Shown here piece after piece: positions 3,083 through 24,449 of a DNA stretch of 64,000 nt (position 1 is its first letter; each line of letters starts with the position of its first letter). Source of the DNA: a virus (taxonomy: Duplodnaviria > Caudoviricetes); IMG/VR virus record IMGVR_UViG_3300029288_000008, positions 21,550-85,549 of that record; one strand, 5' to 3'. The notes below the pieces were generated by a model. It was given only the letters and a program-made list of their open reading frames with translations, ran no database searches and was not told the DNA's origin. Position numbers and translations under genes: made by a program.

Positions 3083-3423
3083 TCCAATAATTCTGGATTC
3101 TCATAGATGTTGCCAACAACAATAGAAAATTCGTTATAATAATGTAATTCACATTTATGGACGTTTAACCAAAAACAACCGTTTCTAAATTCAACAAACG
3201 ATGTCAACTCAAATCCATAGTCGTAAATATCATTATGGTAATTTGAAGTTATAATGTCGCCCTCGTATATTTCTTTCCCCGTTGAATCTTTCAAGCCGGT
3301 GTATTGCATAGGAATAATATCTGAACTGATAAACAGGCCATAGACGGTATATAAATTACAAATACTTTCAAAGTCTACCATTCTCTTGTTGTCTACCCAC
3401 GCTCTAAACTTAATTTCACGCAT
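3079..3423 (-). CDS. YopX family protein
   Basis: MREIKFRAW...MQYTGLKDSTGKEIYEGDI...VVGNIYENPELLE is the typical YopX signature. Confidence 0.9.
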   Translation of the reverse strand: MREIKFRAWVDNKRMVDFESICNLYTVYGLFISSDIIPMQYTGLKDSTGKEIYEGDIITSNYHNDIYDYGFELTSFVEFRNGCFWLNVHKCELHYYNEFSIVVGNIYENPELLE

Positions 3424-11501: not shown

Positions 11502-13033
11502 TAGATTTAGACAGCATTACAGAAGAAAAGATAACTGAGATTTGGCCTAAACTAACAGAACGCCAAAGAGAAGCCCTTGCAATGGAGTTATCAGAACCGG
11601 CAAGAAAAGAGAAGTGTGGATTATACGATAATTCGGCTTCATTTTCAAAATGGGCAATGAGTTGGTTTTATGTCCCTGAGACCAAAAGCCCTATATTTCT
11701 CTATCCACATCAAAGAAAAGCTATTGACATTGCCACAGAACGAGACGCTAATGGTTTGTTTAAGTATTCTCTTGTTCACTATGGCGATATAAAAAAATCT
11801 GGGAAAACAACGATAGCTGCTATGATCGCGCTTCGTTTTGCTTTCCTTAGAGAGTGGACTTCAATTAAGGTTGTTGGTCAGAAGTTAGATCAGGCTAAAT
11901 CTAGGAGCTATTTTTATATCTGCCGTGCTTTAGACTTAAACCCACAATTCGCAAAGATGCAAAGCGAAGGAAAAATTATAGTAAACAATTACACCATAAG
12001 GTTTACTGAGAACAATTCTATGATTCAGGCTATACCGGCTTCACCCTCTACTGAAGCGGGCGGAAATGACGACCTCATTATTTGGACTGAAATTGGAAGC
12101 GCAAAGACAGAAGCGGCGCAACAGTTATGGACCGAAATGGTTATACCACCAAGAAAGTATGGATACGGTATAAAGTGGACTGAGGGATACGCTGGACATA
12201 TCGGGGAAAGTCCAATCCTTGAAGAAATTTATAACAACAACGTTAAACTAGAATATCAAATATCAGATAATCCAAAAATATATTCTAATGCAAGAACGTT
12301 TGTAATGTGGAATGATATTCCACAGTTAAAACGATTCCAAACCGACGAATATTATAAGCAGCAATCAACCGAACTTTTACCGAGTGAATTTGATAGGGTT
12401 CACCGGAATCAGTGGGTATCAAGTCAAAGTTCTTTCATACCGTATCAGTGGTGGGAAAGCTGCGCAGAGAATTTACCAGAATTAACGCAAAACGAAATTA
12501 TGATTTTGGGTGTTGACGCGGCAATATCAGGGGATAGTTTTGCAGTTGTTGGCGTTACCAAACATCCAAAAGATAAGGATAGATTAGCTGTTAGAACTTT
12601 GAAAATATGGAAACCGAAACCCGGACAATCTATCATTTTTTCCCATCCTGACCCAAAGCAAAACGAGTTGTTACCAGATGGGTATATAACCGATCTGTGC
12701 AAGCGCTATAAGGTCAAGATGATAATGTATGACCCTTACCAACTGTATAACTTGGCAACACAACACAATCTATCCAGAAAAAGTGCATTCTGGGAAGCGT
12801 TTAATCAGGGCGCACCTCGACTTGAGGCAGACGCTAACCTATATCATCTTATCCGAGAAAACAAAATTGCCCATCCAAACTTTTTAGAGTTGAATGAGCA
12901 GGTTAAAAATGCAAATTCTCAAAGCGATGGGGAATCGAAAATGAGAATTGTCAAGCGGTCAGAAAGTCAAAAAATAGATAGTGTGGTAGCGCTTTCTATG
13001 GCATCTTTTATAGCTAAGAAGTTAAATTTGTGA
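11498..13033 (+). CDS. terL: Terminase large subunit
   Basis: Walker A KKSGKTT; nuclease motifs ILGVDAAISGDS, YDPYQ, KIDSVVALSMA. Confidence 0.9.
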   Translation: MIDLDSITEEKITEIWPKLTERQREALAMELSEPARKEKCGLYDNSASFSKWAMSWFYVPETKSPIFLYPHQRKAIDIATERDANGLFKYSLVHYGDIKKSGKTTIAAMIALRFAFLREWTSIKVVGQKLDQAKSRSYFYICRALDLNPQFAKMQSEGKIIVNNYTIRFTENNSMIQAIPASPSTEAGGNDDLIIWTEIGSAKTEAAQQLWTEMVIPPRKYGYGIKWTEGYAGHIGESPILEEIYNNNVKLEYQISDNPKIYSNARTFVMWNDIPQLKRFQTDEYYKQQSTELLPSEFDRVHRNQWVSSQSSFIPYQWWESCAENLPELTQNEIMILGVDAAISGDSFAVVGVTKHPKDKDRLAVRTLKIWKPKPGQSIIFSHPDPKQNELLPDGYITDLCKRYKVKMIMYDPYQLYNLATQHNLSRKSAFWEAFNQGAPRLEADANLYHLIRENKIAHPNFLELNEQVKNANSQSDGESKMRIVKRSESQKIDSVVALSMASFIAKKLNL

Positions 13034-13279: not shown

Positions 13280-13552
13280 AGATCACTCCTTCTCAGAACA
13301 ATAACAATTGACTGTTTCCATACTTGCCGCTTGACCTAATGCCGCGCATTGGTTGACACACTTCTGAGAAATGTGCATTGTAGGGCGCATTAAGATATAC
13401 CAGATACAAGCCGCTGTAATCAGTAAAGCTAAAATACCTAACGCTTTCTTAATCATAATTCTCCTTAAAAAATAGGGGAATGAATTTTATTTCATTCCCC
13501 ATCTAACAGGGTACTCTATCACTATTAAACTGTTCTGGCAAAATTGCCATTG

Positions 13553-13797: not shown

Positions 13798-13875
13798 TGC
13801 TATCTATACGATTTGAACGTATGTTTCTTAGTTTAACCGGTCACTAAGTGTACTATGCCACTATACTAAGATAGC
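13798..13875 (-). tRNA. tRNA-like gene with a 12-nt anticodon loop (anticodon unassignable)
   Basis: Acceptor GCTATCT/AGATAGC, D stem GTAT/GTAC and T arm ATACG-TTCAAAT-CGTAT are intact; loop TGACCGGTTAAA between CTTAG/CTAAG. Confidence 0.75.
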
Positions 13876-14028: not shown

Positions 14029-14033
14029 ATTAG

Positions 14034-14106
14034 CAGGGACGGCTTGCTTTGAACAAGTACCTGCGGTTTTGGAGACCGCCGTTCTAGCCTGTTAAACTAC
14101 ATCCCT
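14034..14106 (-). tRNA. trnW: tRNA-Trp (CCA)
   Basis: AGGGATG/CGTCCCT-G; GCGGT-CTCCAAA-ACCGC. Confidence 0.9.
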
Positions 14107-14119
14107 ATAAAACTCCTTA

Positions 14120-14345
14120 TTATTGTCGGAAGGTCCGATCGCCTATTCTTGTGATCTACCTAGCACATTTCGGCAACACATAGCGGCCCATATTCGGATG
14201 TAAATACCTAGTCCACAGTGCCGGGTTATTCTAGTATTTACAGCTTCCTTCCGTAACCCATTCTATCGTCAATGTGCCACGATTTTCGCGCGATCAAAGC
14301 CCTAGTCATCTAACACACACTAAACACCTGCTAGTGTCACGCATA
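14120..14345 (-). ncRNA. Candidate structured ncRNA with multiple pseudoknots
   Basis: Five complementary pairs: 14134-14142/14290-14298, 14162-14169/14271-14278, 14199-14207/14234-14242, 14223-14228/14254-14259, 14127-14133/14247-14253; G-U wobbles favour the minus strand. Confidence 0.6.
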
Positions 14346-14369
14346 GAACAGGTTATTTTAATGTACAAG

Positions 14370-14443
14370 TGCCCCCGGAAAGACTCAAACTTTCGACCTT
14401 GCGATTAGAAGTCGCTTGCTCTATTCAACTGAGCTACGAGGGC
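14370..14443 (-). tRNA. trnR: tRNA-Arg (TCT)
   Basis: GCCCTCG/CGGGGGC-A; anticodon loop CTTCTAA. Confidence 0.9.
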
Positions 14444-14859: not shown

Positions 14860-14888
14860 ATTCTACACCCATTCTAAAAAAATGTCAA
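14860..14888 (-). promoter_or_regulatory. Sigma70-type promoter of the tRNA operon
   Basis: TTGACA-17-TAGAAT with TG extension. Confidence 0.75.
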
Positions 14889-21646: not shown

Positions 21647-21713
21647 TACCCAATTTTGATTTAATGTTGTTTTGTGGTATAATGTTTTTTACTCATTAAA
21701 TTTTGGAGGTTAT

Positions 21714-24449
21714 ATGTCTAATCTTGTAGAAAGTTATTTGAATGAATTGGATTGGAGAGTTAGAGAAAACAGTAATGCAAGCTTTTCGTATCAGGGGTTA
21801 AATCAACACGTTGCAACCAGCGTTGTGTCTAAGTATTGGCTGGATAATGTGTATAGTAAAGATGTGGCTAATGCTCATATAAATGGAGATATGCACATAC
21901 ACGATTTGGGAATGTTGACGGCTTATTGTTGCGGATGGGATTTATACGATTTGTTGTCTAGGGGTTTTGGTGGGGTTTATGGTAAAGTGCAAGCAAGTCC
22001 ACCAAAGCACTTTAGCAGCGCATTAGGACAGTTGGTAAACTTTATGTATACGATGGCAGGGGAATTAGCCGGTGCCGTCGCCGTCTCTAACTTTGATACG
22101 TTGCTTGCTCCATTCGTTAGATACGATGGATTAGACTATAAACAAGTTAAACAGTTTATACAAGAGTTTGTGTATAATATGAACGCTCCTACCCGGCTCG
22201 GGTTCCAAAGCGTTTTTTCAAATCTCACTATGGACTTGACGCCTTCTCCTAATTATGTTAATGAGTGTATAGTTATTGGGGGAGAGTTACAAAATCAAAC
22301 CTATGGTGAATTTCAGTTTGAAATGGATTTAATCAATAAAGCGTTTTGTGAAGTGATGTTAGAGGGAGATGCTAAGGGCAGAGTTTTTACATTCCCAATT
22401 CCAACCTATAATTTACACAAGGAATTCGATTGGGAAAATCAAGAGCTATTGTGGAAAATGACCGGTAAGTATGGCGTGCCATATTTTGCAAATTTTATCA
22501 ATAGCGATTTGAAACCAGAAGATACTAGAAGTATGTGTTGTTTTACCGGAAACACAAAAATCATATATAGTTACAATGACACAAAATCAATTTCGACATT
22601 TCAAAAGTTAAGCACAAAAAACTATGATTTTGTGTATGTTCCGATTTATGGAAAATGGGAAAAGGCTAAAGTGATAAAGATTCCGTATAACGGAATGTTC
22701 TACAGAATTAGATTACGAAATGGAGTTGAGATAACAACTACAGACAATCATATAAACGTTACGAATAACGGAAACAAGGAATCAAAAGAGCTTTGCACAG
22801 ACGATTATATTGAATTTAGTAATGGCAATATAGATTTTATCGGATATGGTTCTTATGATTTGGGTTTGTTTGTTGGATTATATTTAGCAGAAGGCTCGCA
22901 CTTGGGAGATGATGCTATTCAACTTACAATCGGAGAAACAGAATTAGATATAGTAGAATTTGTTTCTAATTTCGTTGGAAACAATTTTGCTACACATTGC
23001 TCTGTGTGTCCGGGAACGGGAAAATCATTAACAATAGCTATCAGTGATGTAGTTGTTAGAAAATTTATTGACAGCCTAGTTAGCGGGACGGCATTAACTA
23101 AAAAATTAGTTTTTTGGGACAAACTATCAAGGGATATGTTGCGCGGAATATTTGACGGATGGTTTTGGGGAGATGGAAAGAAAAACGGAAGTGAAGCATA
23201 TACTTGTTCAAAAGAGCTTGCAGAACAAATGTTGTTTATTGGAAGAATAATTGGTAAACTGTTAAACATCAGAGAAACAAATAGGGTTACTTCATTTGGA
23301 GAAAAATCATACAACAGTACATTATATTCATTACACGTTTGTGTTAATAGCGATAATGGCGGAAGAATATACATATCGAAAAACAATAAGCTGTATGTAA
23401 AAATAGAATCAATAGACATTGTTCCTAACGCGAATAAAGTTGCTTTCTGTTTTGAAATGATGGGTGCAGAGCCGTATTTTGAACTTCCATCTGGACTTGT
23501 TACTCATAATTGCCGTCTTAGGCTTGACAGAAAACAGTTGACAAGAAGATCGGGCGGTTTGTTTGCCGCTTCTGCTTTGACCGGTTCTGTGGGCGTGGTT
23601 ACTATAAACATTCCTAGAATAGCTTGTAAAGCGCAGTCAATAGAGGAATTTTATACTATGCTTTCAGAAGTTATGGAACTGGCAAAAGAATCATTAGAAG
23701 TTAAACGGGTATTGATTGAAGACTTAACCGGGAAAGGATTGTACCCTTATTCTACCCATTATTTAGATGGGGTTTACGCCGCTCATAAAAAGTATTGGTA
23801 CAATCATTTTAGTACTATCGGTTTAGTGGGGATGAATGAGGCTTGCTTGAATTTGCTTGGAGTTAGCATAGAATCTAATGTGGGTAAGGAGTTCTCAGAA
23901 GAAGTATTACGGTTTATGTTGGATAGGATAACCGAATACCAAAACGAGACTGGGAATTTATATAACCTCGAAGCGTCTCCTTGTGAATCGGCTACATTCA
24001 GAATGGCTAAATGTGATAAAAAATTATATCCTGATATTATCACGGCGGGTACTAGTCAAACTCCATTCTATACTAACAGTACTCAATTGCCAGTTGATAC
24101 CGGCTTTGATATTATTGACGTTTTAGATCATCAGAATTCATTGCAAAGGATGTATACCGGGGGAACGGTTGTTCACCTGCTTTTAGGTGAATCGGTAAAC
24201 AGTTGGGAAACCGTAAGAAATTTTGTTAAAATGGTGGCAACACAGTATGAATTGCCATATTTTACCATAACACCTACTTTCAGCGTGTGCAAAAATCATG
24301 GGTATATAAATGGAGAGGTTTACGAGTGTCTACAGTGCAATGAAAAGACAGAAGTTTATAGTAGAGTAGTTGGCTATCTCAGACCGATAAGTAATTGGAA
24401 CGATGCTAAACAGTTAGAATTTAAGGAGCGCAGTACCTACAAACTTTAG
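21714..24449 (+). CDS. nrdD: Anaerobic (class III) ribonucleoside-triphosphate reductase with intein, no ATP-cone
   Basis: HIHDL, SMC|CRL finger loop, TGSVGVVTINIPR, YTNST, YTGGTV, CxxH..C..C Zn site, YSRVVGYLRP glycyl-radical motif. Confidence 0.93.
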   Translation: MSNLVESYLNELDWRVRENSNASFSYQGLNQHVATSVVSKYWLDNVYSKDVANAHINGDMHIHDLGMLTAYCCGWDLYDLLSRGFGGVYGKVQASPPKHFSSALGQLVNFMYTMAGELAGAVAVSNFDTLLAPFVRYDGLDYKQVKQFIQEFVYNMNAPTRLGFQSVFSNLTMDLTPSPNYVNECIVIGGELQNQTYGEFQFEMDLINKAFCEVMLEGDAKGRVFTFPIPTYNLHKEFDWENQELLWKMTGKYGVPYFANFINSDLKPEDTRSMCCFTGNTKIIYSYNDTKSISTFQKLSTKNYDFVYVPIYGKWEKAKVIKIPYNGMFYRIRLRNGVEITTTDNHINVTNNGNKESKELCTDDYIEFSNGNIDFIGYGSYDLGLFVGLYLAEGSHLGDDAIQLTIGETELDIVEFVSNFVGNNFATHCSVCPGTGKSLTIAISDVVVRKFIDSLVSGTALTKKLVFWDKLSRDMLRGIFDGWFWGDGKKNGSEAYTCSKELAEQMLFIGRIIGKLLNIRETNRVTSFGEKSYNSTLYSLHVCVNSDNGGRIYISKNNKLYVKIESIDIVPNANKVAFCFEMMGAEPYFELPSGLVTHNCRLRLDRKQLTRRSGGLFAASALTGSVGVVTINIPRIACKAQSIEEFYTMLSEVMELAKESLEVKRVLIEDLTGKGLYPYSTHYLDGVYAAHKKYWYNHFSTIGLVGMNEACLNLLGVSIESNVGKEFSEEVLRFMLDRITEYQNETGNLYNLEASPCESATFRMAKCDKKLYPDIITAGTSQTPFYTNSTQLPVDTGFDIIDVLDHQNSLQRMYTGGTVVHLLLGESVNSWETVRNFVKMVATQYELPYFTITPTFSVCKNHGYINGEVYECLQCNEKTEVYSRVVGYLRPISNWNDAKQLEFKERSTYKL
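22539..23510 (+). mobile_element. Intein (324 aa) with LAGLIDADG homing endonuclease
   Basis: N-terminal CFTGNTKI, block B TTDNH, LAGLIDADG motifs GLYLAEG and GWFWGDG, C-terminal THN followed by Cys+1. Confidence 0.93.

Follow-up and report, generated by a model that had tools for sequence, protein, structure and literature searches.

Since T4, phage tRNA clusters have been recognized as sites of small stable RNAs, and we know of no explanation for the function of such RNAs to date. In T4, rnaD (species 2, 119 nt) starts within 1 nt of tRNA-Arg and is succeeded by rnaC (species 1, 139 nt), which ends in a T arm and an acceptor-like stem, and the pair is processed by RNase P. Double-stranded processing sites of another kind, the RNase III type stems, are found in rRNA operons and in T7 early transcripts. 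RNase P cuts non-tRNA substrates, phage RNAs included, and T4 tRNAs without an encoded CCA depend on a nucleotidyl transferase (PMC11143913).

Here, we describe a gap in the tRNA array of an uncultured phage, which spans 262 nt after tRNA-Arg(UCU), compared with 264 nt in T4. On balance, and with some caution, we favor reading it as two adjacent RNA modules that are cotranscribed with the tRNAs, the second of them with tRNA-like ends, and not as one pseudoknotted RNA. As with T4 rnaD and rnaC, two non-tRNA RNAs of ~115 to 140 nt would lie head to tail after tRNA-Arg(UCU) in a phage tRNA cluster, and the T arm and acceptor-like stem of rnaC resemble the predicted acceptor-like stem of the second module, which is stacked on a 5-bp stem. 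The two systems also differ, since T4 and this phage are unrelated, rnaC has a T arm whereas the second module lacks a T loop, and the first module is, unlike the T4 RNAs, a simple long hairpin with a variable apex. Blastn revealed no match between them at an E value of ≤10, and a model of the second module (R1), run unfiltered on the T4 tRNA locus, scored 3.2 bits (at rnaC). As no similarity by sequence or model was detected, the likeness is an analogy of layout and not family membership.

The window, i.e., the whole 64-kb stretch of DNA that was analyzed, is part of an 85.5-kb contig (C2) with a GC content of 0.39, and the same bin holds a 0.96-Mb chromosome with a GC content of 0.43. The contig belongs to a phage, and among its products are a large terminase, a D5-type primase-helicase, and an anaerobic ribonucleotide reductase with an intein; the intein-like insertion in the reductase gene lies at 21672-24449 of the window, with a weak Intein_splicing match between the NRDD halves. 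Upstream of the window, the contig codes for a TROVE/Ro60-like protein, an RNA ligase, the nucleotidyltransferase RlaP, and a CCA-adding enzyme with an HD domain, all of them confirmed by Pfam (C2:3900-10800, here L175, ~11 to 18 kb before the window). ARAGORN identified a tRNA array of eight genes on the minus strand, running from 14443 to 13552. Seven of its spacers are 2 to 6 nt long, and the eighth, between tRNA-Arg(UCU) and tRNA-Trp, is the gap of 262 nt (14107-14368, minus strand). The tRNA-Arg(UCU) gene ends with a discriminator A and one C. Coordinates of all features are compiled in Table 1.

Table 1. Features of the tRNA array gap and its surroundings. RNA position equals 14369 minus the window coordinate; P1 to P3, PK1, and PK2 are helices named in the preliminary description.
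Feature	RNA positions	Window coordinates	Strand	Basis
Promoter-like site, 11/12 matches; would start the tRNA operon transcript		14860..14888	-	
tRNA-Arg(UCU), upstream neighbor of the gap		14369..14443	-	ARAGORN; Rfam tRNA 61.6 bits
Linker, 13 nt, A/U-rich	1-13	14356..14368	-	alignments, folds
Domain 1, stem-loop	14-115	14254..14355	-	fold and four-sequence comparison
Domain 1 basal stem, 13 bp		14343-14355 with 14254-14266	-	
Domain 1 stem extension, 3 pairs beyond a 1-nt bulge		14339-14341 with 14267-14269	-	
Domain 2, Y-shaped RNA, 129 nt	116-244	14125..14253	-	predicted fold, pair probabilities
Domain 2 closing stem, 7 bp (= PK2)		14247-14253 with 14127-14133	-	
Domain 2 stem, 5 bp		14194-14198 with 14134-14138	-	predicted fold
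P3 hairpin, 10 bp, 24-nt loop, in domain 2		14199..14242	-	pair probability ~1
Trailer, 18 nt, before tRNA-Trp		14107..14124	-	
tRNA-Trp(CCA), downstream neighbor of the gap		14033..14106	-	ARAGORN, Rfam
Terminator-like hairpin and T run, after the last tRNA		13475..13500	-	
P1	71-79/227-235		-	
P2	91-98/200-207		-	
P3	127-135/162-170		-	
PK1	110-115/141-146		-	
PK2	116-122/236-242		-	

The gap lies between a promoter-like and a terminator-like site, and neither type of signal was found within its 262 nt, so that a promoter or terminator inside the gap was rejected; we count this arrangement for modules carried on the tRNA transcript. A coding sequence was rejected as well, with all six frames of 14107-14253 closed, and so was a MITE-like repeat, because the element was present as a single copy when the bin was searched with nhmmer. 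The preliminary description had placed a noncoding RNA on the tRNA-sense strand within the tRNA transcript, and in this respect it holds.

No known family was recognized in the gap. Scanning 14107-14368 with Rfam 15 yielded no match at gathering scores, and at an E value of ≤10 the minus strand was still empty and the plus strand gave a single chance-level match, to Cardiovirus_CRE (15.6 bits, E = 9.4). The families left unmatched in Rfam 15 include RNase P, tmRNA, group I and II introns, HDV-like, hammerhead, and twister ribozymes, raiA, GOLLD, ROOL, and the bacterial Y RNA YrlA (RF02553), in line with the preliminary description, which had been unable to assign the element to a known class. 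ARAGORN, run with its intron, pseudogene, mitochondrial, and tmRNA options, detected no hidden, split, or intron-bearing tRNA and no tmRNA in the gap, and a tRNA cloverleaf (RF00005) was found there neither by relaxed ARAGORN nor by Rfam at E ≤ 10. No described family for the element was found in the literature.

Searches at the DNA level gave the same picture. With blastn, the gap had no match among 50,697 phage records at a cutoff as loose as E ≤ 10, BLAST searches of 60 relatives and of 400 genomes from the putative host phylum produced chance matches only, and nhmmer over the whole bin returned the gap itself. Pattern scans of IMG/VR with words from the gap or the flanking tRNAs gave either nothing or 44 matches in an unrelated enterobacterial prophage gene, and a pattern scan of genome contigs gave one chance match in a coding gene of a Fluviicola MAG. 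Loci collected by means of TerL from IMG/VR (41) and JGI metagenomes (62) were mostly without tRNA arrays and contained no relative of the gap. Two other candidates were rejected: the array spacers of L106 consist of ORFs or tRNA-like elements unrelated to the gap, and the L170 fragment, taken from the D5 protein cluster, is not related to it. The models of domain 2 (R1) and domain 1 (R2), applied to ~0.6 Mb of related loci and the phage's own genome, recovered only their inputs, which for R2 were four sequences; R1 found nothing in 150 relatives and had no match in the Ro60/RNA ligase region of the contig.

Relatives were reached only via proteins and not by DNA searches. One (L159) was found through a D5 homolog with 82% identity, and L166, L167, and L168 were found through the 90% D5 cluster; the spacers of L166 and L167 are identical, and the stem comparison comprised four distinct sequences, i.e., those of this phage, L159, L166, and L168. 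The relatives share a layout of terminase, tRNA array, and primase, and their DNA identity to this phage is 74 to 82% in genes, 86 to 96% in tRNAs, and ~90% at the start of the spacer. Behind tRNA-Arg, each of the four phages has the 13-nt linker and, next to it, a hairpin whose base is conserved; this part, comprising the first ~115 nt, is all that the spacers have in common. In L159 and L168 the next tRNA begins at most 9 nt after the hairpin, and domain 2 is absent. In L166 its slot is taken by a 95-nt tRNA-like cassette, which combines a canonical T arm with an acceptor-like stem and a single long hairpin. Among the four phages compared, domain 2 occurs only in the one described here. The same hairpin is thus followed by nothing, by another cassette, or by domain 2, which indicates that these arrays exchange whole cassettes.

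The linker is unpaired in all folds and nearly invariant among the relatives. Domain 1 alone has a z score of -3.26, and none of 200 shuffles was as stable. When the 13-bp stem and its extension were compared across the four sequences (16 pairs, 64 cells), 92% of the cells were paired, versus 33 to 47% for controls with slid partners. One pair shows a two-sided change, from C-G to U-A, and five pairs show one-sided changes of the G-U/A-U type. There is not a single A-C cell, which points to an RNA on the tRNA-sense strand. The preliminary description had noted G-U pairs only on this strand; the statement holds, and the conserved stem of the relatives, with G-U present and no A-C mismatch, is better support for it. 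Covariation in the basal stem, with a single double change among four sequences, is not significant in the shuffle control (124 of 500). Overall, the comparison is supportive, if not conclusive, of selection acting on the 16-bp basal stem in a small clade of uncultured phages. The apex (14270-14338) has another length and another sequence in each relative and could not be aligned; its length varies from 38 to 78 nt across the four phages.

We propose that module 1 consists of the short single-stranded linker and the long hairpin, placed directly after tRNA-Arg(UCU), with a basal stem that would be under selection and an apex that would be free to change. It may act as a double-stranded processing or protective element, or its stem may be the constant, protein-binding part of a small stable RNA. 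As in RNase III type stems, a conserved long basal stem surrounds a variable segment within a polycistronic stable-RNA transcript; the stem here, 16 bp with a bulge, is shorter than the classic two-turn sites.

The first base of domain 2 directly adjoins the end of the conserved stem, a boundary that is set independently by the relatives. Domain 2 is predicted to form a tight three-way junction (linkers of 4, 0, and 0 nt) of the closing stem, the P3 hairpin, and a 65-nt arm with a 5-bp base. In shuffles, the first 7 nt of domain 2 had a fully complementary 7-mer in 0.22% of cases. The closing stem is followed by A and C at 14126 and 14125, and the 5-bp stem abuts it on the 3' strand, giving a 12-bp stack in the predicted fold. 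Features of the acceptor type, i.e., a 7-bp stem, a discriminator-like base, and a 3' C, are therewith present. Seven of the eight tRNA genes in the array likewise end in a discriminator and C, although the C alone is expected by chance in one of four cases and the L166 cassette lacks it. The likeness to tRNA and minihelix substrates of RNase P and the CCA-adding enzyme extends to the 7-bp terminal stem with its unpaired base and C and to the contiguity of this stem with the 5-bp stem on the 3' strand; unlike these substrates, domain 2 has no cloverleaf, T loop, D arm, or anticodon loop, and the tRNA model did not match it. Its stability does not exceed that of shuffles (z = -1.25), and no loop-loop pseudoknot above chance was found within it. 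No homolog was found among the sequences searched, and its helices are those predicted from this single copy.

Module 2 would accordingly be a cassette of this phage only, a three-way junction with a perfect closing stem of 7 bp that may stack on the 5-bp stem as an acceptor stem does on a T stem. It could be excised as tRNAs are, by RNase P at its 5' end and by trimming at its 3' end, and CCA could then be added by the phage's own CCA-adding enzyme. The CCA-adding enzyme, the RNA ligase, RlaP, and the TROVE/Ro60-like protein of the contig count in favor of the two-module reading. The sequences themselves show the boundaries of the modules, the conservation of the module 1 stem, the lack of module 2 in the relatives, and the missing Rfam match; the processing route and any function of either module are inferences.

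The most serious competitor, which we nevertheless consider doubtful, is that the conserved hairpin alone is functional and that domain 2 is a selectively neutral leftover of cassette turnover, such as a tRNA-like gene in decay or the scar of a recombination event. This would suit the presence of domain 2 in only one of the four phages, the failure to find a homolog anywhere searched, the unexceptional stability of its fold, and the whole-cassette gains and losses by which the arrays of close relatives differ. A decayed element, however, would be expected to lose both the tight three-way junction and the tRNA-like ending, and the perfect 7-bp closure falls exactly at the module boundary, at the low shuffle frequency given above.

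The trailer between domain 2 and tRNA-Trp contains a Shine-Dalgarno-like purine run at 14113-14118. Its last few bases are similar among the relatives, and the purine run is not. As a separate observation, this strong Shine-Dalgarno-like run (within 14107-14124) is located ~10 nt 5' of an AUG-UAG start-stop pair among the first bases of tRNA-Trp; the relatives lack the run, which arrived with domain 2.

The preliminary description had interpreted the gap differently, as a single RNA of a new ~200-nt class in which P1 and P2 close a domain containing P3 and in which PK1 and PK2 form two crossing helices. Each of the ten sequence words on which it was built has a single occurrence on the minus strand, no more than one base away from the implied position. 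The entire gap has a minimum free energy of -70.2 and a z score of -1.12, i.e., it is no more stable than shuffles. Helices of 6 to 8 bp occur in it at the chance level seen in shuffles, and helices of at least 9 bp are enriched (4 observed versus 0.99 expected, a number reached by 1.7% of shuffles). The longest helix of the gap, with 13 bp (RNA 14-26/103-115), is missing from the preliminary description and occupies the PK1 strand. In the nested thermodynamic ensemble, pair probabilities are ~0.9 to 1.0 for this helix, P3, and PK2 and ~0 for P1, P2, and PK1, and forcing P1, P2, and P3 together incurs a penalty of 8.6 kcal/mol.

Comparison with the relatives separates the proposed helices further. 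P3 belongs to the best-supported fold, nested within domain 2, and is wholly absent from the three distinct relatives. PK2 also belongs to this fold, as the nested closing stem of a separate module and not as a crossing helix. Of the two crossing helices, both of whose words are present, PK1 is contradicted by the relatives: its 5' strand is the 3' strand of the conserved 13-bp stem, and its partner is absent from them. The 5' strands of P1 and P2 are located in the apex of domain 1, and the 3' strands of P1, P2, and PK1 all fall within domain 2. Since P1 and P2 both join the variable apex to domain 2, they are not conservable and, judged from the sequences compared, could exist in this phage only. 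The relatives lack their partner strands, and against shuffles the two are jointly marginal (1 to 3%): the frequency in shuffles was 1.1% for two colinear interdomain 9-bp helices like P1 and P2 and 2.8% for any two such helices, in a test that was set up post hoc. The three distinct relatives thus keep the first ~115 nt only, without partner strands for P1, P2, PK1, or PK2, and the homologs do not conserve the five helices, a point on which the preliminary description had itself made its model depend. As the 129-nt module has no relative in anything searched, there is no evidence for a ~200-nt class, and nothing in our sequence analysis points to the catalytic activity that had been considered possible. 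The gap does contain real, noncoding RNA elements that are uncatalogued, and it is not a multi-pseudoknotted 200-nt class; it is probably not one knotted RNA but a shared hairpin and, after it, a folded RNA that is strain specific and has tRNA-like ends.

A hybrid of both models, in which the modules dock via P1 and P2 and, together with the basal stem, P3, and PK2, form a compact, lineage-specific pseudoknotted RNA of ~230 nt, appears improbable to us. We keep it as a minority possibility because two nested 9-bp interdomain helices are so infrequent in shuffles; the two-module reading has to treat these colinear complementarities as coincidence, and we count them against it. The overall enrichment of helices of at least 9 bp also suits docking. 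No spacers separate the strands of the basal stem, PK2, and P1, an arrangement that would permit coaxial stacking, and the apex of domain 1, being unlike that of all relatives, could have coevolved with domain 2. On the other hand, the pairing probabilities and the energetic penalty described above count against docking, PK1 competes with a conserved and stronger helix, the shuffle test was chosen after the helices had been seen, and no homolog carries these strands. Moreover, in L166, which also has a cassette, complementarity between the apex and the cassette was not above chance. If docking did occur, a doubly knotted RNA of ~230 nt built from two array cassettes would be a snapshot of how ornate phage RNAs might arise by module fusion.

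That the conserved inverted repeat works instead as DNA, namely, as a protein-binding or recombination site marking a hotspot of cassette insertion, is highly improbable, for although neighboring cassettes differ between phages and the L166 linker has acquired a 47-codon ORF together with a 9-nt duplication, the cells of the stem that depart from Watson-Crick pairing are G-U on the tRNA-sense strand where the other strand or a cruciform would give A-C mismatches, the plus strand folds no better than shuffles, and the element lies inside a transcribed tRNA operon.

With the two-module reading, the locus provides neither a new ribozyme nor a new large RNA class. It adds an uncatalogued conserved hairpin, present on four contigs of uncultured phages, and an orphan cassette whose ends are tRNA-like, in a phage that has its own CCA-adding enzyme, RNA ligase, and Ro60-like protein, and it shows whole RNA cassettes being swapped between the tRNA arrays of close relatives. 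It thereby offers a concrete candidate for asking whether non-tRNA cassettes are matured by the tRNA-processing machinery.

Several further elements were observed in the arrays of this phage and its relatives. In the region of L166 that holds both the linker ORF and the cassette (L166:3379-3803, minus strand), the cassette has one mismatch in its acceptor-like stem and was not called by any tRNA finder. A further hairpin, 72 nt in length with a long stem, separates tRNA-Tyr from tRNA-Met in the same locus (3154-3225). In the window, 13798-13875 is a 78-nt tRNA-like gene with an oversized anticodon loop, assigned to Gly-ACC by ARAGORN. It is kept at L159:8693-8770, where it scores 55 bits with the Rfam tRNA model, and it stays below the gathering score in the window. 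The slot of tRNA-Trp(CCA) is occupied in L159 (8926-8999) by a tRNA of ~75% identity with an anticodon loop that reads as ACA, and the predicted decoding identity at this slot differs between these close phages.

Outside the arrays compared here, the Ro60/RNA ligase region contains repeated units that precede a tRNA-Pro (L175:5480-5960) and have common 5' and 3' words and tRNA-like T arms; YrlA from Rfam did not match the L175 region at E ≤ 0.01. In a phage with 52% TerL identity, ~460 nt free of ORFs and rich in GNRA-type loops are situated in the tRNA array, between a tRNA-like element and tRNA-Met (L010:11080-11540, minus strand). This stretch had no Rfam match at E ≤ 0.1 and a z score of -2.78 (1 of 100 shuffles), and we regard it as a candidate large structured RNA. 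Upstream of it are two promoter-like repeats and another ORF-free stretch of ~300 nt (11650-11950).
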